From NCBI GenBank assembly GCA_965221165.1, contig CBDCRP010000002.1, positions 256,001 through 320,000 of the forward strand: a stretch of 64,000 nucleotides of DNA, given 5' to 3'. Below the pieces are notes generated by a model that ran no database searches, was not told where the DNA came from, and saw only the letters and a program-made list of their open reading frames with translations. Numbering within the stretch: the first letter of the stretch is position 1; the number at the start of each line of letters is the position of its first letter. A program made the translations under genes and the position numbers. Positions 8,015 through 60,209 of the stretch are shown piece by piece. The DNA comes from a bacterium (GTDB lineage: Bacteria; UBA8248).

Positions 8015-9101
8015 GGATGTGTTCTCCATCTTCCATCAGCCGGTAATGTGCGGCGAGGCGGTCGAAAAAGCTCTCCAATTGGTGGATAACGGCGTCCATA
8101 TCGTCCATCCGGTTCACCTGCTCGCGCATCGCCGAACCCCCCCGCAGCCCCTTCGTGTAGGCCGGCAGATGTTTTCGGCAGTGGAACACGGCGAGCCGCT
8201 CGCCCAGTACCTCCCGGAGGAGCCGGAAATGGCGCACCGTCATTTTCTTCTTCTCCATCAAACCCGGCGGGGCGGGCAATTCTCCGGTTTTAAGCCAACT
8301 CAAGAGCCGCGAGAAAATCCACGGATTCCCGATGGCTCCGCGCCCGATCATCAGAGCGTCCACGCCCGTGCGGCGAATCATGGCGATGGCGTCCTGGGGG
8401 CTCAAGATGCTGCCGTTCCCGAAAACGGGAACCCGCACGGCGCGCTTCACCCGCGCGATGGCTTCCAAGTCCACCGCGCCGCTGAACATGGCCTGCCGGG
8501 TTCTGCCGTGCACGGTGATGGCCTTGGCGCCCGCGTCTTCCACCGCCTTGGCGAATACTTCCGCCGAATTTTTCTCGATGGTGTCCCAGCCGGTGCGCAT
8601 CTTCACCGTCACGGGTATGCGCACCGCGCGAACCATGGCGGAGACGATTTTGTGCGCCTGTCCGGGGTATTTGAGAAGAGAGGAACCCGCCTGGCTTTTC
8701 GTTATCTTCTTGACGGGGCACCCGCAGTTGAGATCGACGATATCGGCGCCCGCCTCTTCCACCAGGGCCGCCGCTTGGCCCATCTTGGCCGGGTCCGCGC
8801 CGAACAACTGGATGGAAACCGGTTTTTCGCCCGCTTCGTTGCGCATCAGGTCGTACGTTTTCTTGTGACGCCGCACGAGGGCCTGGCTGCTCACCATCTC
8901 GGTGGCCACCATGCCTGCGCCATGCGCCTTCACCAGCGAGCGGAAGGGCAGATTCGTATAGCCCGCCATGGGCGCCATGACGAGCCGGCTCCCGACCCTC
9001 ACCCCGCCGATATCGAGGGGGCCATCGAAACCCTCCGGAGGCGGCGGCACCACTTCCAGTGACTCCTCGCATACGCTCGGACCCGCTTCTTCGGGGCGCA
9101 T
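8004..9101 (-). CDS. dusB: tRNA-dihydrouridine synthase B
   Basis: APMAGYT, QLFG, DLNCGCPVKK, VHGRTR, MIGRGAIGNPWIF. Confidence 0.92.
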   Translation of the reverse strand: MRPEEAGPSVCEESLEVVPPPPEGFDGPLDIGGVRVGSRLVMAPMAGYTNLPFRSLVKAHGAGMVATEMVSSQALVRRHKKTYDLMRNEAGEKPVSIQLFGADPAKMGQAAALVEEAGADIVDLNCGCPVKKITKSQAGSSLLKYPGQAHKIVSAMVRAVRIPVTVKMRTGWDTIEKNSAEVFAKAVEDAGAKAITVHGRTRQAMFSGAVDLEAIARVKRAVRVPVFGNGSILSPQDAIAMIRRTGVDALMIGRGAIGNPWIFSRLLSWLKTGELPAPPGLMEKKKMTVRHFRLLREVLGERLAVFHCRKHLPAYTKGLRGGSAMREQVNRMDDMDAVIHQLESFFDRLAAHYRLMEDGEHIHAA

Positions 9102-9113
9102 CAGTTGTTCCCC

Positions 9114-10241
9114 TTAAAACCGCTGTTCATTCCAGGCCTCATCCAGTTCCCAGGAGGGGTCCGCATCCATATCCGCAAAGTCCATGAATTGCCCGCGCCC
9201 GCGCTCTATCAGCTTGAAGCCGCCGGCGCAGGCGATCATCGCGGCGTTGTCGGTGCAGTATTTGCGCGCCGGGAAATGGAGCGACCACCCTTCTTTTTTC
9301 GCCCTTTCTCCCAATTGCGCGCGCAGATACGAATTCGCGGCCACGCCCCCGCTCACGGAGACGGCGGATAGTTTTTCCCGGCGAACCACCCCGCTCACCT
9401 TCTCCACCAGAACCGCCACCGCCGCTTCCTGAAAACCCGCAGCCACCGCGCACGCCACCTCTTCTGGAACTTCCTGGGGACGCGCCCAGGGGGGAAGGTC
9501 GCGATCGCTCAGATACAGGCCTCTTTTTTTCTGGTAGTTTAACACAGCCGTTTTCAAACCACTAAAGCTAAAAGCATAAGGTCTGTCTTCAAGAAATGGC
9601 CGGGGGAATTCGACGGGGTCCGAATTGCTCCCGTTCCCCTCCAAAAATCGCGCATGCAGCCGATCGACGATGGGACCGCCCGGGTAGCCCAACCCCATGA
9701 TGGCCGCCACCTTGTCATACGCCTCGCCCAGGGCGTCGTCCAGCGTGCCTCCCAAATGCGTCACCTCGCCGTGCCCGTCCACGCGATAAAAATCCGTATG
9801 CCCTCCCGAGACCACGAACCCCAGGTGAGGAAACGGAGGCGGAGCGTCGCCCTCGTTTCCGGTAGGCAGAAAAAGAGAGTGGATGTGCCCGTCGAGATGG
9901 TGCACGCCGATGAGCGGAACACCCAGGCTCCATGCCAACCCCTTCGCGGCGGACAAACCCACGAGCAGGGCCACCACCAGGCCCGGGCCGCGCGTGACCG
10001 CCACGGCTTCTATCTGCTTCGTGGAAACGGATGCTTCCTCCAGAGCCGCCTTCAGGACGGGGGAGATCATCTCCACGTGCCGGCGCGCCGCGAGTTCCGG
10101 GACCACGCCGCCGAACCGCGCATGGATATCATGCTGTGAGGCCACGACGTTGGATAAGACTTCAGGCGCAGAATCTTCCGAGAACTCCAGCACGGACGCC
10201 GCCGTCTCGTCGCAACTCGTCTCCACGCCCAGAATATACAC
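9114..10241 (-). CDS. tsaD: tRNA N6-adenosine threonylcarbamoyltransferase
   Basis: LGVETSCDET, GGVVPELAARRH, HLDGH, VSGGHT, FSFSGLKT, CTDNAAMIA; GTG start with GAGGAG RBS. Confidence 0.96.
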   Translation of the reverse strand: MYILGVETSCDETAASVLEFSEDSAPEVLSNVVASQHDIHARFGGVVPELAARRHVEMISPVLKAALEEASVSTKQIEAVAVTRGPGLVVALLVGLSAAKGLAWSLGVPLIGVHHLDGHIHSLFLPTGNEGDAPPPFPHLGFVVSGGHTDFYRVDGHGEVTHLGGTLDDALGEAYDKVAAIMGLGYPGGPIVDRLHARFLEGNGSNSDPVEFPRPFLEDRPYAFSFSGLKTAVLNYQKKRGLYLSDRDLPPWARPQEVPEEVACAVAAGFQEAAVAVLVEKVSGVVRREKLSAVSVSGGVAANSYLRAQLGERAKKEGWSLHFPARKYCTDNAAMIACAGGFKLIERGRGQFMDFADMDADPSWELDEAWNEQRF

Positions 10242-53445: not shown

Positions 53446-53689
53446 CTCCTCTTGAAAAACACCACATCAAACGAAGAAAAATAAATTTTTCCGAAGTGTA
53501 TCCCAGCGCGGCGCGCACGGCCAGACGTACAGAGGCCCCACCGCCCTTTTCTCACACGAGATGGGCGCACGGATTGTCTTGTCCCGTCCCCTGCCCCTAC
53601 AATGCCCGGGCATCGTTCGCAGGAAACGCGCGGGCGAGCGCATCAGGGCTTTTCACGACAAATTTTCCCTCTCATACGAAGGAGGCGCA

Positions 53690-54127
53690 ATGAGCTTTTA
53701 TAACTGGGATATGCTGCCCTTGAGTCATGATCGCCCGGGCGTCGCGCACAGAAGGATTTTTGGCGACAACATCCAGATGCAGCACTTGATCACCGAGCCC
53801 GGCGGCACGCCCTCCAAACTGCACAACCATCCCGATCATGAGGAGTTCTTCTACATCCAGGCGGGCGAATGGGAGTTCACGCTCGAAGACGAGGTGCGGC
53901 GCATAGGCCCTGGCGACGTGGTGCACGTCAAGGCGGGCGCGATGCACACCCTGAGGCTCCTGAGCGATGAGCCGGGGATGGCGCTCGAGGTCTTCTACCC
54001 GATGTGGAATCCCGAACTCGCCGGGAACAAGGAAGATTTTACGATAGACGCCATCAAGAACCGCATGGAATTCGCCGAAGAACCCGACGATATGAACCGG
54101 GGCCGCCCGCCCGGGCACGGGGAATGA
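53690..54127 (+). CDS. Cupin domain protein
   Basis: HNHPDHEEFFYI..G, GD..HV..G.MH; GAAGGAGG RBS. Confidence 0.85.
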   Translation: MSFYNWDMLPLSHDRPGVAHRRIFGDNIQMQHLITEPGGTPSKLHNHPDHEEFFYIQAGEWEFTLEDEVRRIGPGDVVHVKAGAMHTLRLLSDEPGMALEVFYPMWNPELAGNKEDFTIDAIKNRMEFAEEPDDMNRGRPPGHGE

Positions 54128-54198
54128 CGGGGGAGGCTGTTGAAAAAGTCCCCCAAACACAGGGAACGAATTTCTCAATCGACATACGCTTATGAAAC

Positions 54199-54422
54199 CA
54201 CTCCCCCCTTGAGGGTCGGGCTTCCCGAGGGGAAAGCCCGACGGTGAGCTAAGGGCATAAGCCCGCAAGCGAACCGGTTGGGGGTCAAACGCGACCGGTG
54301 AGGGAGCGTTTGTGTTTTTTAAGTCGGGCAGCCCCTCCTTCCTCAGTCCGGGCTGACCCCCCACCGATTCAGCCTTCGCGCAAATCGCTCGGCTTCATCG
54401 ACTCCCCCTCAAGGGGGGAGTG
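54199..54422. mobile_element. MITE/REPIN-like element with 17-bp perfect terminal inverted repeats
   Basis: CACTCCCCCCTTGAGGG (54199-54215) and CCCTCAAGGGGGGAGTG (54406-54422); arm homologous to 10899-10959. Confidence 0.65.
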
Positions 54423-54478
54423 TTGTCTCTCTTCTTCCCGGGCAGCGGATTTTTCGGAATTTCCCCCCTGACGAGCAC

Positions 54479-54520
54479 AAAAAAACAGGCGGCGCCCGTC
54501 GACGCCGCCTGCCGTTTTTT
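54479..54520 (-). terminator. Intrinsic terminator (possibly bidirectional)
   Basis: CAGGCGGCG/CGCCGCCTG stem with A7 on the left and T6 on the right. Confidence 0.8.
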
Positions 54521-54564
54521 GAATTTCCCTCAATGTTCCGTTACAGGTAACACCAAGGGTCGGT

Positions 54565-54660
54565 TTAGGGTTTTTTCAAGACCCTCTTTCTCGAGTGAGC
54601 CGTTTTCAGGACCCTCCGGAGAGAAGTTTCGTAGGCGGAAACTATCAATATCCTTACCAT
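54565..54660 (-). CDS. Putative 31-aa basic small protein MVRILIVSAYETSLRRVLKTAHSRKRVLKKP (or sRNA)
   Basis: AGGAGG RBS shortly before ATG; own promoter and terminator. Confidence 0.5.
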   Translation of the reverse strand: MVRILIVSAYETSLRRVLKTAHSRKRVLKKP

Positions 54661-54688
54661 GACAGCCCTCCTATATGGTTGGGTGCAC

Positions 54689-54717
54689 ATTTTAGTGAAG
54701 CTCCGGGGCGATGTCAA
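54689..54717 (-). promoter_or_regulatory. Near-consensus sigma70 promoter
   Basis: TTGACA (54717-54712), 17-nt spacer, TAAAAT (54694-54689). Confidence 0.75.
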
Positions 54718-54810
54718 GAATTTTCATCCCCAAAATGCCCATAAAATTTTAACTCCATATATTTCAATTTCTTACATATCATATTTCAAGGAGGGCGCCG
54801 CCCCCCGTTC

Positions 54811-55917
54811 CTACGCCTCGATGATGGCGGCGACCACCCCGCCGCCCACCGGACCCTGGTGGAAAACGAGGCCGGCCGAGACGTAGACCGCCGGGTCCTG
54901 CACGACGGAGGCGATGACCGCATTCGCCACCGCGCGCACGGGCCGCGTGCCCAGAACCGAATCCGTGAGCAGCGTGACGCGCTTGTCCAGAAGCCTCCCG
55001 TCCCACGGCGCGCCCGCCTTCGCGAACGCGTGAACCACCCGTTTCAGGTCCTCCTCCCCCGGCAGGCCGTCGAAGGTGAGGCCTGCGTTCTTGAGCGACT
55101 GCCGAACGGCGTCGGCGTCGATCAGATGCTGCATCACCGCGCGGCCGATCTTGTAGCGGCTCACCGATTGTGCGGAGTTCGCCAGCACGACGACTTCCGA
55201 GCGCATGAGTTCCACGCCCGCCGAGCAGGAGATCATCTCAGAATACAGGTCGCCCCGGCTGCACACGTCCGCTATCTCGAACGATGCCCTGTCGATTTCC
55301 CCGAGTCCCACCGCCGCGCCCAGGGCCGAGCAGCCGTTCGAGAGGCTCATCGAGCGCGTGGTGTCCGTGCTCACCACCTTCTTGCCGCGCGAGGCCGCGT
55401 CGTTGATGCGATCCGACGTGAGCAGCGGGCACTTCACCTGCACGTAGCCCACGTCGTCGAGCGAATCCACGCCCGACTTTGCGAGCGCTTCGGTCGCCGC
55501 CTCGGCCACGAGATCGACTTGCGCCATCGTGCCCAGTTCCTCGGGCAGCAGTTCCCGTGTGAAGGCGACTCCCATGGAGAGGCGCTTTTCCCCGGGGCTT
55601 TCGGCCTCGCCCACGTCCGTCTTGGAAATGGCCACCGCGTGGGGACTCATGACCCCCTCGCATCCGCCCGACATCACCATGGCGCACATCCCCTGCACCT
55701 CGGCGCGGGTGAGGCCGAGCGCCTCCATCATGTAGTCCTCGAAGGAATGGAGCGCGTAGGGCCTCGAATAGTCGTTCACCCGGCCGTTGCCCTCCGTCTT
55801 GGCGATGATGGCCTGAATGTCCGCCGCCTGAATCCGGCCCGCCGCCACCGCCTCCGCCAGACCCGAGACGTCCTCGGGTCCCGACATCTGAAACTTCACC
55901 ACCTGGGTATCAAACAT
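54811..55917 (-). CDS. Ring-opening amidohydrolase, cyanuric acid hydrolase (AtzD)/barbiturase family
   Basis: KTEGNGRVNDYSR, SGGCEG.MSPH, QVKCPLLT, SCSAGVE, HQGP.GGG. Confidence 0.93.
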   Translation of the reverse strand: MFDTQVVKFQMSGPEDVSGLAEAVAAGRIQAADIQAIIAKTEGNGRVNDYSRPYALHSFEDYMMEALGLTRAEVQGMCAMVMSGGCEGVMSPHAVAISKTDVGEAESPGEKRLSMGVAFTRELLPEELGTMAQVDLVAEAATEALAKSGVDSLDDVGYVQVKCPLLTSDRINDAASRGKKVVSTDTTRSMSLSNGCSALGAAVGLGEIDRASFEIADVCSRGDLYSEMISCSAGVELMRSEVVVLANSAQSVSRYKIGRAVMQHLIDADAVRQSLKNAGLTFDGLPGEEDLKRVVHAFAKAGAPWDGRLLDKRVTLLTDSVLGTRPVRAVANAVIASVVQDPAVYVSAGLVFHQGPVGGGVVAAIIEA

Positions 55918-56007
55918 AAGTCCACCTCCTCAGTATTCGCCTAAAACCTCTGTGCGCCGCGCCGGTCTCAAAGGCGAGCGGATGTCAAAAGCCATCAAAC
56001 CTCCTCG

Positions 56008-57447
56008 TTATTCGTCAAGGGCGCCCGATGCGCGAGCGCCGTTTGATGCTCCCGGAACCATCAGGCCCGCGCGCTCGACGATGGCCGCGGACGCCGCCTG
56101 CGCCTCTTCGCGAATCGAGCGCTCCTCATCCTCGCTCATTTTGCTCAGACGCCCCGCTTCCATGAGCGGCTCGCCATCCACCCAGACCCACCGCACCTCC
56201 GTTCCGTGGGCCTGATACGCGAGGACCGAGGGCAGATGATGGTTCGGATACATGTGGGGGCCGCTCATATCGAGCAGAATCATGTCCGCCCGCTTGCCGA
56301 CCTCGATGGAGCCAATCTCCTCCTCCAGGCCGAGCGCGCACGCGCCGTTTCGCGTGGCCATGTCGAGCACCTGCTGGGCCGTGATGGCGGCAGGGTCCTG
56401 ATGCACCCCCTTGTGGAGCAGGCACGCCAGCCGTATCTCCCAAAACATGTTGGCCAGGTCGTTGCAATTCGCGTTGTCCGTCCCCAAAGCCACGGGAACC
56501 CCGTAGCCCAGCATCCGGGGCACCGGAGAGACGCCCGAACCCAGATACATGTTGCTCGAGGGGAGATGCACGGCCTGCGTGCCTGATTCCTTGAGGATGC
56601 GTATGTCCTCCTCGCTCAGGTGGATGCAGTGGCCCGCCACCAGGCGCTCCGAGAGCAGCCCCCAGGCCGCCAGGTGCTGCACGACGGGAAGGCCGCCCAC
56701 TTCTGATTCCATCGGGTCCTCCGAGACGTGCGTGGAGACGCGAAGCCCCCGTTTTCCGGCCCATTCGTCCACCTCGCGGAACGTCTCGGGCTTCACGTAG
56801 ACGGGGATGTTCGGCCCCGGCCAGACGAGAACCCGGCCCCCGGCGCGGCCGTGGTATTTATCCACCAGATGAGAAGTCTCCTCGAACACCTCATCTCTGG
56901 TCTTCAAGCTCGGCGGAAAGGTTTTTCCCCAGGCGGCGATGTGGGAGTGCGCCCGCTCCGCCAGCTTCCCTTGGGGCGATATTTCGTTAAAGCTCAAGGC
57001 GAAGACGCTCCGCATCCCGGAATCGTCCATGGCCTCTATCATCGCCTCGGCCAGGGGGATCGGAATGCGCTCGTTCGTCACCACCGCCGTGGTGCCCGAG
57101 CGAATCGCCTCGCACGCGAAGAGCTTGACGGAGAGCGCCGCATCCTCGGGTGAATAGGCCGCCTGGCCGGGCGCCATGACGTTCAGGCGCCAGTCCATCA
57201 ACCGCCTGTCCGCACCCAAGCCGCCCCTGAGCAGAATGCACATGATGTGGCTGTGGGCGTTCACCAGCCCCGGCATGAGGGCCATGCCTTCGCCGTCGAC
57301 CACCCGCGCTGCGCCTGCGCTTATCCTGGACGTCGAAATCTCGGCGACCCGGCCATCCTCGACCAGCACGGACGCGCGCCCGATGACGTCTCGCGTCTCG
57401 TTCTGGGTGAGGACGCAGGCGTTTTCGACCACGAAACGACCCGACAT
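56008..57447 (-). CDS. Metal-dependent amidohydrolase closely resembling AtzA/TriA (s-triazine hydrolase-like)
   Basis: NAHSH, ILLRGG, YHGRAGGRVLVWPGP, HVSE, SNMYLGSGVSPVP, GTDNANCND, IGSIEVGKRAD. Confidence 0.88.
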   Translation of the reverse strand: MSGRFVVENACVLTQNETRDVIGRASVLVEDGRVAEISTSRISAGAARVVDGEGMALMPGLVNAHSHIMCILLRGGLGADRRLMDWRLNVMAPGQAAYSPEDAALSVKLFACEAIRSGTTAVVTNERIPIPLAEAMIEAMDDSGMRSVFALSFNEISPQGKLAERAHSHIAAWGKTFPPSLKTRDEVFEETSHLVDKYHGRAGGRVLVWPGPNIPVYVKPETFREVDEWAGKRGLRVSTHVSEDPMESEVGGLPVVQHLAAWGLLSERLVAGHCIHLSEEDIRILKESGTQAVHLPSSNMYLGSGVSPVPRMLGYGVPVALGTDNANCNDLANMFWEIRLACLLHKGVHQDPAAITAQQVLDMATRNGACALGLEEEIGSIEVGKRADMILLDMSGPHMYPNHHLPSVLAYQAHGTEVRWVWVDGEPLMEAGRLSKMSEDEERSIREEAQAASAAIVERAGLMVPGASNGARASGALDE

Positions 57448-57591
57448 GGAGAAATCCTCCGGTTGGTGTATCTCCCAGAATACGACAAACAGGGGGATTT
57501 GAATATCTCCACTGGAAGCCGCGCCTTGCCAGAGAGGGAAAAGAGCATTATTAGTGTGAGAGAAAACCCGACATCCCGAGGAGAGACGCCG

Positions 57592-57987
57592 ATGTCCAAA
57601 ATCAAATTCCTGCAACACTTCAGCCTCTATTGCCGGGATTTACCGGCCATGCACAAGTTCTACAACGAAGTCCTGGAGCTGCCCGAAATGCCCCGCCCGC
57701 ACTTTCCGTTCCCGGGCTATTGGTTCGAGGCGGGAGAAGACCACCAGATCCACCTCGCCAAGGTGAGCGACACGCACGTGTCCCACTCCATCAGCGACAA
57801 CGAAGACAGCTACATGGACCACCACTTCGGGATGGTGACGGAGGATTTGGACGGCATAAAAGAGAGGCTTAAGAAACACGGCGTCGAATTTCACGACGAG
57901 CCTTACGGATATCCGCAAATCTTTTTCAGGGACCCGGAGAACAACCTCATCGAGGTCGCATCCACGGCGATGTTCGAGATGGAATAA
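57592..57987 (+). CDS. VOC/glyoxalase family protein
   Basis: LQHFSL, RPHFPFPGYWF, QIHL, HHFG, QIFFRDPENNLIE; GAGGAG RBS. Confidence 0.88.
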   Translation: MSKIKFLQHFSLYCRDLPAMHKFYNEVLELPEMPRPHFPFPGYWFEAGEDHQIHLAKVSDTHVSHSISDNEDSYMDHHFGMVTEDLDGIKERLKKHGVEFHDEPYGYPQIFFRDPENNLIEVASTAMFEME

Positions 57988-58123
57988 GGCGCGCGGGCAT
58001 GAGCAAACGCTCGCTCCGCCGTGATCCCCCCATCCGCTCCGGGCCGGGAAGTCCACCCACACACACGGGAGCGTCATCGTTTCCCCATCCCGGGTTGTTT
58101 CGACGTTTCTTGGAGACCAAGCC

Positions 58124-58531
58124 ATGCCATTTCAAAAATTCCGCACCACACGGGTCACCGCCGGGGCGGGCAGCTACTCCCAGGCCCTTCTCGCCGGCAA
58201 GACGCTCTATCTCGCGGGCCAGAAGGGAGAGGGGCTCGACGGAACTCCGCACGCACGCGGCGACGCCGCGGCCCAGGCACGCCAGGCGTGCGAGAACATC
58301 CGCCGGCTTCTCGAGGAGGCCGGCGGCGACCTCTCCCACGTCGTGAAGCTCACGAACTACATTACCGACAGGGCGTACCGCAAACCCGTCTACGAGGTCA
58401 TCGCGGAATACTTCGGCCCCTATGCGCCTGCGAGCACGGGCGTAATCGTGGACGGCCTGGCTTCAGAGGATTTTCTCGTGGAAATCGACGCCACCGCTTA
58501 CATCCCCCAGGCGGGGGAGAACCACGTTTGA
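58124..58531 (+). CDS. RidA/YjgF family protein
   Basis: YSQA, LYLAGQ, QARQACENI, PASTGVIV.GLA, LVEIDATA. Confidence 0.88.
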   Translation: MPFQKFRTTRVTAGAGSYSQALLAGKTLYLAGQKGEGLDGTPHARGDAAAQARQACENIRRLLEEAGGDLSHVVKLTNYITDRAYRKPVYEVIAEYFGPYAPASTGVIVDGLASEDFLVEIDATAYIPQAGENHV

Positions 58532-58622
58532 GTAATGGGCCCTAAAAGGGCAGAATAAGGACACAGACAGACCAATCAGTGAAGCAGCCCATAAGGCTGA
58601 ATCCTTTTAGAGGAGACGGATC

Positions 58623-60209
58623 ATGACCGAATCTTTCGATGGATTGTTCATCGGCGGCGGGCACAACAGCCTGGTATGCGCCGCCTATATGGCCAAAGCC
58701 GGGAAAAAAGTAGCCGTTCTGGAACGCTCCGACGTCGCCGGCGGGGGCTGCTGCACGCACGAAGTCACCCTCCCGGGATTCAAGCACAACCTGCATTCGA
58801 ACTATTACGTGGGTCTGGACAGAAGCCCCATCCTGCGCGATCTGGAACTCCACGAATACGGCTTCAGCCTCATCTTCCCGGAGTTTCAGCAAGGCTGCAT
58901 CTTCAGCGACGAATCGGCGTTCGTCATCCACCGCGACGTCGAGAAGACCGTCAAGTCGATCGAGCGCATCAACAGAAACGACGCGAGAACCTACCGCGAC
59001 CTCCACGTCAAATTCACCGAGGGGATGCTCGACATCATCACCTCCTTCATGTACTGCGCCCCCCTGCCGCCCGAGGAGCTGAAAGAGCGCTTCGCGGGGC
59101 CGCTGGGCCGTGAATTCCTGAGCTATGCGGACCTGAGCATGTACGAGGCAGTCGACCAGCATTTCGAGGACGACAGGCTGCGCGTGCTGTTCAAGCTCTT
59201 TCTCGGCTCCTTCACCCTGGTGAACACGCCTTCGACCGGCTTATTCTTCCCGAGAATCTTCTCGCGCATCGCGAATTTCGCCCTGCCCGTGGGTGGGTCG
59301 GTGAACTTCTCGCGCGCTCTGGAGCGCGTCGTCGAGCGCGGGGGCGGCAAGGTGCTGACCAACTCCGAGGTCCGCGAAATCACGGTCGAAAGCGGGGACG
59401 CCACCGGCGTCATCCTGGAGGACGGCACCCGCATCGATGCCACCGAGTTCGTGGCGAGCGGGGTGAACTGGCCGCTCACGGTGCGCCTGGCCGGGGAGGA
59501 TTATTTCGGGGGCAGGCTCTCCAAGGCGGCGCTCGAGTTCCAGTGGGCGAGCCACGGGCTTTGCACCATCCACCTGGCGCTCAAGGAAGCGCCCGACTTC
59601 AAGGCCGCGAAATACGAGCCCGACATCAACAAGACGTTCAACATCTTCTGGGGCGCGGACTCGACCGAGGAGATCACCGAGTGCTTCGACACGATACACG
59701 AGGGCGAACTGCCCCGGCTCATGGGCAACGGCGGGAGCAACAGCCATTTCGACCCGACCTACTCGCCCGAGGGCACGCACGTGGGCTACTGGTGGCCGTT
59801 TGCGCCCTATGAGCTCAAAGACGGCGGGGCCGAGGCGTGGGACACGAAGCGCGAGGAATACACCGAGCACTTCATCGACTCCTGGACGCCCTATGCGCCC
59901 AACATCAACCACGACAACATCATGGGCAGCTATCTCTATACGCCGCTCGACATCGTGCGCATGAACCCGAACTTCGTACGCGCCAGCCACCACGTGGGCG
60001 CCTACATTCCAGAACAACTGGGCTACAACCGCCCGCACCCGGAGGTGAGCGACTTCCGCACGCCTATCGGAAAACTCTACCTGTGCGGTTCGAGTTCCCA
60101 CGTGGGCGGCGCGGTCACGGGGGCTCCCGGCTACAACTGCGCGAACGCGATAGCCGAGGATCTGGGAGTCGAGCGCTTCTGGGCGCCCGTCGAAGCCATG
60201 ATGGCCTGA
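58623..60209 (+). CDS. FAD-dependent oxidoreductase, phytoene-dehydrogenase-like
   Basis: IGGGHNSLVCAAY, GGGC.T.E, RTPIGKLYLCGSSSH.GG.VTGAPGYN. Confidence 0.88.
   Translation: MTESFDGLFIGGGHNSLVCAAYMAKAGKKVAVLERSDVAGGGCCTHEVTLPGFKHNLHSNYYVGLDRSPILRDLELHEYGFSLIFPEFQQGCIFSDESAFVIHRDVEKTVKSIERINRNDARTYRDLHVKFTEGMLDIITSFMYCAPLPPEELKERFAGPLGREFLSYADLSMYEAVDQHFEDDRLRVLFKLFLGSFTLVNTPSTGLFFPRIFSRIANFALPVGGSVNFSRALERVVERGGGKVLTNSEVREITVESGDATGVILEDGTRIDATEFVASGVNWPLTVRLAGEDYFGGRLSKAALEFQWASHGLCTIHLALKEAPDFKAAKYEPDINKTFNIFWGADSTEEITECFDTIHEGELPRLMGNGGSNSHFDPTYSPEGTHVGYWWPFAPYELKDGGAEAWDTKREEYTEHFIDSWTPYAPNINHDNIMGSYLYTPLDIVRMNPNFVRASHHVGAYIPEQLGYNRPHPEVSDFRTPIGKLYLCGSSSHVGGAVTGAPGYNCANAIAEDLGVERFWAPVEAMMA

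Follow-up and report, generated by a model that had tools for sequence, protein, structure and literature searches.

Introduction

AtzA and TriA, which act in the dechlorination of atrazine and the deamination of melamine, are textbook cases of recently evolved enzymes. Here we describe a two-gene operon related to them in a 64,000-bp stretch of chromosomal DNA from a Nitrospinota bacterium (the window: positions 256,001 to 320,000 of contig CBDCRP010000002.1, GenBank assembly GCA_965221165.1, lineage UBA8248), whose own numbering is used below. An amidohydrolase gene from the superclade that contains AtzA and TriA is followed on the minus strand by a gene for a ring-opening enzyme of the AtzD/barbiturase family, called AtzD-like here. 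The pair occurs in several Nitrospinota genera. On balance, judging from the genes, we lean towards a cyclic ureide route in which the operon would deaminate and then open a polar, asymmetric amino-oxo ring.

The following has been described for the closest systems. The progenitor of AtzA and TriA is given as still unknown (Busch 2023), and the ancestral direction between the two enzymes is called unclear (Noor 2012). Whether dechlorination or deamination takes place depends mainly on positions 328, 331 and 84; AtzA with the substitution S331C showed 3,200 M-1s-1 with atrazine and 50 M-1s-1 with melamine, and the activity of TriA with D328N was undetectable (Noor 2012, Table 1). The mononuclear metal site of AtzA is formed by His66, His68, His243, His276 and Asp327, plus Glu246 (Peat 2015).

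For AtzD, specificity has been assigned to positions 195, 321, 325, 345 and 346, which read R,T,R,G,G in cyanuric acid hydrolases and N,H,K,V,S/A in barbiturase (Peat 2013). Loss of one of the three arginines is the mark of barbiturase, an enzyme with an asymmetric substrate, and in the model of that study Asn at Arg195 goes with an asymmetric substrate (Peat 2013). A later paper marks cyanuric acid hydrolases by the arginines R194 and R324 of AtzD (195 and 325 in the numbering of Peat 2013) and by the motif S-G-G-x-E-x-Q-G-P-x-G-G-G-P (PMC9118981, 2021).

Relationship of the amidohydrolase to AtzA and TriA

The amidohydrolase gene (56008 to 57447, minus strand) encodes 479 amino acids from an ATG at 57447. 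It is followed, after a spacer at 55918 to 56007 on the same strand, by the AtzD-like gene (54811 to 55917, minus strand; 368 amino acids). Both the coordinates and the spacer sequence confirmed the initial annotation, which had reported two co-oriented genes 90 bp apart. A Shine-Dalgarno sequence, GGAGG, is read ahead of both ATGs, 7 bases ahead in the case of the AtzD-like gene. A GTG at 57618 was ruled out as the start of the amidohydrolase because the homologues are about 467 amino acids long and GGAGG precedes the ATG at 57447. Presumably, the first product is a metal-dependent aminohydrolase that performs step 1 and the second, a ring-opening amidohydrolase of a non-canonical type, performs step 2.

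The amidohydrolase belongs to Pfam Amidohydro_1 (E 1.6e-56). Its best sequence match in the PDB was AtzA (4v1x, 334.5 bits), the runner-up being a methylthioadenosine/S-adenosylhomocysteine (MTA/SAH) deaminase with 189 bits. The alignment with AtzA runs from end to end (residues 7-464 against 26-487 of the 4v1x chain, E 1e-98), and all AtzA blocks listed in the initial annotation were found in it: ILLRGG, DW..NV..PGQ, EA.RSG.T, YHG.AGGR..VWP.P, SN.YLGSGV.PVP, P.HHL....QA.G.EV and EEAQ....AI..RA. The AlphaFold model (predicted local distance difference test score, 90.1) superimposed on 4v1x with template modelling (TM) scores of 0.94/0.95 and a root-mean-square deviation of 2.1 Å; the next fold gave a TM score of 0.85. 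Identity was 37% both to AtzA of pADP-1 and to a TriA-type protein from a Klebsiella plasmid, which is unlike AtzA at 8 sites, all among the 9 published TriA differences. The metal ligands and the catalytic Glu of AtzA are retained as H65, H67, H240, E243, H273 and D324 and are invariant in all 15 rows of the window protein's clade.

Homologues of the amidohydrolase form a tight clade at 66-94% identity, beyond which identities fall to about 40%. Phylogenetic trees were built with FastTree from 181 rows and with IQ-TREE (LG+C20+F+G4 by posterior mean site frequencies, with the Shimodaira-Hasegawa-like approximate likelihood ratio test, SH-aLRT) from 67 rows hand-picked from the FastTree tree. 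In the latter, the amidohydrolase was placed with AtzA and TriA in a superclade of 49 rows (SH-aLRT 99); FastTree agreed with a clade of 86 rows (support 100). The superclade consists of four groups: Nitrospinota, a second group with GTDNANCN[DN], a mostly haloarchaeal group and the "GTDD" group that holds AtzA and TriA. Rows with GTDG or GADG motifs (MtaD/DadD-like) fall outside it; therefore, the amidohydrolase does not branch with ordinary deaminases. Its kinship with AtzA and TriA over MTA/SAH, 5'-deoxyadenosine and guanine deaminases, as proposed initially, was thus borne out by PDB scores, trees and fold.

The kinship is not a close one. AtzA and TriA lie in an 11-row clade of their own (99) together with GTDDANCND-type proteins, whose identity to AtzA is 41-50%, and the amidohydrolase lies in a separate subclade. 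The sister group of AtzA includes metagenome proteins with 46-50% identity to it. Among the 181 matches to AtzA the amidohydrolase ranked 43rd, with 37% identity versus up to 49.7% for other natural proteins, and so is not the closest natural relative of AtzA. The set was sampled around the window protein, not around AtzA, so relatives still nearer to AtzA may exist. By these comparisons, the amidohydrolase is to be regarded as a distant natural relative of AtzA and not as its nearest kin.

Positions 328 and 331 and the substrate pocket

The motif GTDNANCND places Asn325 and Cys328 of the window protein opposite positions 328 and 331 of AtzA. The corresponding motifs are GTDNGNSND in AtzA and GTDDGNCND in the Klebsiella-plasmid TriA-type protein; all three were found in the sequences as given in the initial annotation. 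The window protein shares Asn at 328 with AtzA and Cys at 331 with TriA, so its pair (Asn/Cys) matches neither that of AtzA (Asn/Ser) nor that of TriA (Asp/Cys). This had been taken as a blend of the two enzymes. In the tree, however, Asn/Cys is what the Nitrospinota clade and the second natural subclade normally carry, whereas Asp328/Cys331 is found in 9/9 other rows of the AtzA/TriA clade. Because these nearest relatives all carry Asp/Cys, the Asn/Ser of AtzA looks derived and the TriA-type Asp/Cys ancestral on this tree. The motif GTDNANCND is real, yet it is no evolutionary or functional intermediate of AtzA and TriA.

We mapped the residues listed for the AtzA pocket (Peat 2015, as far as available) onto the alignment, giving 37 pocket or TriA-difference positions. 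Only 10 of these, mostly metal and catalytic positions, are identical to AtzA, and the other 27 differ. Four swaps relative to AtzA are invariant in the clade: Arg87 for Leu88, Arg127 for Asp128, Cys70 for Gln71 and Tyr217 for Ala220. Two others are frequent, namely Asn154 for Phe157 (13/15 clade rows) and Asn213 for Ala216 (12/15). With Arg87, Arg127, Asn154, Asn213 and Tyr217, the predicted pocket would therefore be polar and cationic and lack the hydrophobicity of that of AtzA. Such a pocket would favour a small, polar, possibly anionic substrate over an N-alkylated herbicide.

These residues bear on the idea that the amidohydrolase, like AtzA, dehalogenates by hydrolysis: it would take a natural halogenated heterocycle as its substrate, and the AtzD-like protein would open the hydroxylated ring that results. 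The Asn at position 328 is that of AtzA, and AtzA S331C, which has the same Asn/Cys pair, retains its 3,200 M-1s-1 of atrazine dechlorination. TriA D328N, also Asn/Cys, is inactive, however; the pair is a widespread natural state in the superclade, the pocket has two arginines in place of the hydrophobic residues of AtzA, and no halogen-related gene was seen among the nearby genes scanned. We consider a dehalogenase highly improbable, and infer that the module is not an atrazine dechlorinase.

The AtzD-like protein

The assignment of the partner to the AtzD/barbiturase family was upheld by Pfam, NCBIfam and PDB matches. The AtzD-like protein scored 404.5 bits on PF09663 (E 5e-121; cut-off 25), 380 on TIGR02714 (cut-off 153.1) and 399.5 on NCBIfam CyanAcHdlAtzD (NF052395), above the cut-off of 360. 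Its best PDB matches were the cyanuric acid hydrolase of Moorella (330 bits), AtzD (262) and barbiturase (247), and its model superimposed on 6bum with a TM score of 0.94. With AtzD/TrzD and the Moorella thermoacetica cyanuric acid hydrolase (4bvq, 5t13, 6bum) it shares the Toblerone fold, 42-48% identity and TM scores of 0.93-0.94. Three Ser-Lys dyads (K40/S83, K162/S232 and K300/S347) are kept, and so are Arg52 and Glu236.

At the five specificity positions, the AtzD-like protein reads N,T,R,A,G (N194, T324, R328, A348 and G349), a combination that is not among the six signature groups described in Peat 2013. It has N194 in place of the first arginine that defines cyanuric acid hydrolases, whereas R328 keeps the second. 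Further departures from these enzymes are Ala for Gly345, Gly for the Glu of AKAEA, and a C-terminal motif, SAGLVFHQGPVGGGV, that does not match SGGxExQGP, having one extra residue and no Glu. The protein agrees with barbiturase (Rhodococcus erythropolis, 5hwe) in the Asn at AtzD Arg195, LSNG being found in both, and in nothing else among the five positions (T,R,A,G versus H,K,V,S/A). It fails both published signatures, R,T,R,G,G and that of barbiturase (1/5, Asn alone). Judged from these residues, the AtzD-like protein is probably not a standard cyanuric acid hydrolase. Because it lies over the equivalog cut-off and two of its five specificity residues, Thr and Arg, are retained, cyanuric acid may still be a substrate.

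The N,T,R,A,G type is not confined to the window. It was found in 98 of the 124 rows of a close-homologue set, versus 23 rows with R,T,R,G,G. Most of the close homologues automatically named cyanuric acid amidohydrolase are thus of the N,T,R,A,G type, and they read SAGWGYHQGP where canonical proteins have SGGxEHQGP. A member of the Toblerone-fold family in the PDB, 5hy0, is titled "orotic acid hydrolase"; going by this title, the family may include enzymes for substrates other than cyanuric and barbituric acid.

A second AtzD-family gene lies on another contig of the genome (G000:C3:563195-564277; L095:10175-11284). Its product is 43% identical to the AtzD-like protein and canonical: it scored 521.5 bits on the cyanuric acid hydrolase model and has R,T,R,G,G and the motif SGGAEHQGP. 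This copy adjoins genes for a carbamate kinase, a FabK-like oxidoreductase and a BMP-type ATP-binding cassette (ABC) transporter. Many relatives have a similar second AtzD-family copy. The genome also encodes many amidase paralogues and one allophanate hydrolase over cut-off, at G000:C2:449406-450650, about 130 kb from the window.

A true natural s-triazine module, the narrow reading of the initial annotation, would deaminate melamine, ammeline or ammelide, and a working cyanuric acid hydrolase would then turn the resulting cyanuric acid into carboxybiuret. Several of these findings would agree with it. AtzA is the best solved relative of the amidohydrolase; the AtzD-like protein passes the equivalog cut-off, scores higher with cyanuric acid hydrolase than with barbiturase and has Thr324 and Arg328 of the cyanuric acid hydrolase type; an allophanate hydrolase is encoded in the genome; and N,T,R,A,G relatives adjoin AtzE-family and AtzH-like genes (see below), as in atzDGEHF. 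However, the AtzD-like protein has Asn at one of the two arginines that define cyanuric acid hydrolases against barbiturases and lacks their defining C-terminal motif, and a canonical R,T,R,G,G copy is already present elsewhere in the genome. In the AtzA and TriA backgrounds, moreover, Asn/Cys gave melamine deamination of 50 M-1s-1 or an undetectable level (Noor 2012, Table 1). We therefore think an s-triazine module unlikely.

Conservation of the gene pair

An orthologue of the amidohydrolase was found in 20 of the 22 other genomes of the genus (80-93% identity) and in one genome of a second genus (67%). In all 21 of these genomes an AtzD-like orthologue is adjacent, in one of them across a 1.1-kb gap. 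The pair is also kept in other genera at three loci with unrelated flanks (L024, L025 and L099; amidohydrolase 66-68% and AtzD-like 76-79% identical). At L024, for example, the surroundings consist of genes for hydantoinase A/B, an EamA transporter, an M20 peptidase, a cupin and a creatinase-type peptidase.

In one genome of the genus, 99% complete, both genes have been lost. The amidohydrolase gene is gone and the AtzD-like gene lies in frame-broken pieces (remnants at about 8829-9279 of locus L152, G008:C10:965000-984000), with both flanks intact: the cupin gene, pepA, the glyoxalase-family gene and the FAD oxidoreductase gene remain. The pair is thus common to several Nitrospinota genera, and the amidohydrolase gene is vertically kept.

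The pairing is not without exceptions. At L026, a 66%-identical amidohydrolase orthologue stands in the order M20-cupin-amidohydrolase with no AtzD gene within 8 kb. Conversely, an AtzD orthologue in genome G024 (76-78%) has no amidohydrolase in the 650 bp available upstream on its 5.3-kb contig. Outside the clade, an AtzD-family neighbour was found at 0/66 loci of relatives with 27-40% identity, the flanks available for inspection being short at some loci. The claim that the pairing is conserved in other genomes held for the lineage, including genera with different flanks and the joint loss, and did not extend beyond it.

At L024 and L026, which represent two more distant genera, a cupin gene (133-165 amino acids; L024:7471-7968 and L026:7569-7970) lies directly upstream of the amidohydrolase gene on the same strand, behind the M20 peptidase gene. 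The two cupins are 74% identical to each other and 26% identical over 81 amino acids to the cupin encoded in the window.

These data can be set against an account in which the two genes are neighbours without a common pathway, the amidohydrolase being a salvage deaminase of the 5'-deoxyadenosine, MTA/SAH, guanine or 8-oxoguanine type and the AtzD-like protein having an unrelated substrate. The exceptions in both directions (L026 and G024) and the 66 unpaired loci speak for it. So does the best NCBIfam match of the amidohydrolase, 5'-deoxyadenosine deaminase; at 309.2 bits, however, this is far below the cut-off of 522, and the protein stays under the curated cut-offs of all 25 models listed. 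The tree sets the amidohydrolase apart from the GTDG/GADG-motif rows, one species has lost both genes together, and the pair persists in genera with different flanks. Salvage could also be served by the 9 further matches to the amidohydrolase in the genome. Taken together, we find it quite improbable that the two genes are unrelated in function. Four other genomes of the same class (G029, G030, G032 and G033) have about 39-43 amidohydrolase matches each, an unusually large TRZ/ATZ-type expansion.

Genes accompanying N,T,R,A,G-type enzymes elsewhere

We scanned metagenomes for loci with relatives of the AtzD-like protein. Of 56 loci, 23 came from outside the Nitrospinota clade and had a length of 5 kb or more, and these were used (among loci L100-L138). 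Typing showed 17 with N,T,R,A,G, one truncated protein with Asn194, one with R,T,R,G,G and four untyped, so that at least 18 of the 23 are of the N type.

Within 6 kb of the AtzD-family gene, an AtzE-family amidase (692 bits, cut-off 461) was encoded at 9/23 loci and an HpxZ/AtzH-like protein at 7/23. These were followed in frequency by an ABC ATPase (6/23), a PuuR-like regulator and an 8-oxoguanine-deaminase-like amidohydrolase (5/23 each). A second amidohydrolase type, a molybdenum subunit of the xanthine-dehydrogenase family, an M20 protein of the allantoate-amidohydrolase type and a major facilitator superfamily (MFS) transporter were each found at 4/23 loci. This company fits the catabolism of ureides and N-heterocycles and is compatible with a carboxybiuret-like as well as a ureidomalonate-like product. 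Its AtzE-family and HpxZ/AtzH-like genes recall the atzDGEHF cluster. The window differs from that cluster in the partner of the AtzD-family gene, which is an upstream amidohydrolase of the AtzA superclade.

Signals and neighbouring genes at the locus

The region upstream of the operon (57448 to 57591, 144 bp), which includes the GGAGG ahead of the ATG at 57447, also lies upstream of a divergent glyoxalase-family gene. A consensus scan found no sigma-70-like promoter in 57448-57591. No credible Rfam RNA or riboswitch was found in 54000-58700; two matches had E values of 0.08 and 0.58, with scores well below the gathering thresholds. Beyond the AtzD-like stop codon, at a distance of about 300 bp, there is a minus-strand hairpin of 13 pairs with a T-run (54484 to 54513), which also reads as a plus-strand terminator. 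This hairpin is likely the end of the operon; the consensus scan for terminators is a pattern match only, with 15 terminator-like sites in the region versus 4.0 expected.

Three plus-strand genes are neighbours that might belong to the module. A cupin gene (53561 to 54127; 188 amino acids; Pfam Cupin_2, E 1e-15) is convergent with the operon, and a glyoxalase/VOC-family gene (57592 to 57987; 131 amino acids; Pfam Glyoxalase, E 3e-12) diverges from it. The third encodes a RidA/YjgF (L-PSP) family protein (58124 to 58531; 135 amino acids; Pfam Ribonuc_L-PSP, E 4.5e-24). The last two occupy 57448-58622, a seemingly vacant 1.17 kb, and both of their plus-strand frames show codon periodicity, with third-position substitutions among 9 aligned relatives. 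An open reading frame on the minus strand at 57640-58125 (161 amino acids) was rejected as a gene: it is without a family, and the substitution pattern fits the glyoxalase frame on the opposite strand, so it was taken as antisense noise. Another, at 53672-54364 (minus strand, 230 amino acids), likewise matches no family; as it overlaps the cupin gene, it was regarded as spurious. The window cupin was considered as a PuuR-like regulator and rejected, being without similarity to the PuuR-like neighbours at other loci. The wider neighbourhood encodes a leucyl aminopeptidase, a 2-oxoacid dehydrogenase complex, an FAD oxidoreductase, a cyclase-family hydrolase, a TatD-like hydrolase, a methyltransferase and an MFS transporter.

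The GC content of the locus, 0.61-0.62, equals the genomic mode (most 5-kb windows have 0.58-0.62), and no transposase families were found among the neighbours scanned. These results agree with the description of the pair as chromosomal, of host GC content and not borne by an insertion sequence (IS). AtzA and TriA, by contrast, are encoded on IS-flanked plasmid DNA. On the Klebsiella plasmid (NZ_CP084773.1, 30498-41880; L014), the TriA-type gene is followed by an amidase gene, a hypothetical gene and a nucleoside deaminase gene, and then by a 381-bp fragment of a ring-opening amidohydrolase gene and an IS91-like transposase gene, a mobile patchwork context that has no counterpart at the window locus.

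Elsewhere in the window, from about 14000 to 40000, the GC content is 0.47-0.53 inside a region of 0.60-0.65. This stretch encodes enolase, Obg, glutamate 5-kinase and MnmA, along with TPR, FG-GAP and HEAT-repeat proteins. A foreign or chimeric origin was set aside, with housekeeping genes inside the stretch and 5-kb GC values ranging from 0.44 to 0.66 in the genome.

Discussion

As far as we searched, it is new for an AtzA-superclade gene and one for a non-canonical ring-opening amidase to be combined in a conserved operon; both families, and chromosomal homologues of cyanuric acid hydrolase, are already known. In the literature on Nitrospinota sponge symbionts, no mention of "cyanuric" occurred among the matches listed. 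Of the two-step module proposed at first as a natural relative of the herbicide-degrading enzymes, the family kinship, and the pairing within the lineage, have stood, whereas the motif blend, the closest kinship to AtzA and the canonical AtzD role have not.

In the route that we favour, the mononuclear-metal amidohydrolase would take the exocyclic amino group as ammonia off a polar, nitrogen-rich, six-membered amino-dioxo ring, for example an aminodihydroxy-pyrimidine or -triazine, to give a tri-oxo cyclic ureide. The AtzD/barbiturase-family enzyme would then open this ring at an amide bond by means of its conserved Ser-Lys dyads. Ring opening would yield a linear carboxy-ureide, and amidases from other places in the genome may convert this to urea or ammonia. 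We infer the order of the steps, and a substrate that is asymmetric and polar or anionic, from the pocket of the first enzyme and the signature of the second.

Several points weigh against this cyclic ureide route. The chemistry of the module is predicted from genes and models, and its substrate is proposed. No AtzE-family gene (best 393 versus 425.75 bits) and no HpxZ gene was found over cut-off in the genome, and no downstream-pathway enzyme was found within the window. Within the genus, synteny extends over the whole neighbourhood, so that conservation of the pair there does not count as independent evidence and the more distant cases are the informative ones; the unpaired genes at L026 and G024 show that the pairing is not general. 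Lastly, the AtzD-like protein passes the cut-off of the cyanuric acid hydrolase equivalog and keeps Thr and Arg at specificity positions.

Beyond the cyclic ureide route, we tentatively raise, with some doubt, the possibility that the operon encodes the two steps of a natural pathway for an asymmetric amino-oxo heterocycle not yet recognised, in which the AtzD-like protein would represent a third specificity class of the Toblerone fold, with the signature N,T,R,A,G. Most of the close homologues sampled have this signature, and within the AtzA/TriA superclade as seen here, the Nitrospinota amidohydrolase alone is accompanied by a conserved ring-opening partner.

Automatically assigned names may need care in this family. 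Since the 98 of 124 rows with N,T,R,A,G match neither published signature, counts of cyanuric acid degraders that rest on family membership or on the NCBIfam cut-off may be inflated.

Most natural relatives of AtzA and TriA sampled here are without informative neighbours, and the Nitrospinota clade is the exception. Its conserved ring-opening partner suggests the kind of compound that natural enzymes of the AtzA superclade handle. If the AtzD-like protein does represent a third class acting on an unrecognised heterocycle, the operon would point to a native role of the superclade that gave rise to AtzA and TriA and would give a handle on their progenitor.

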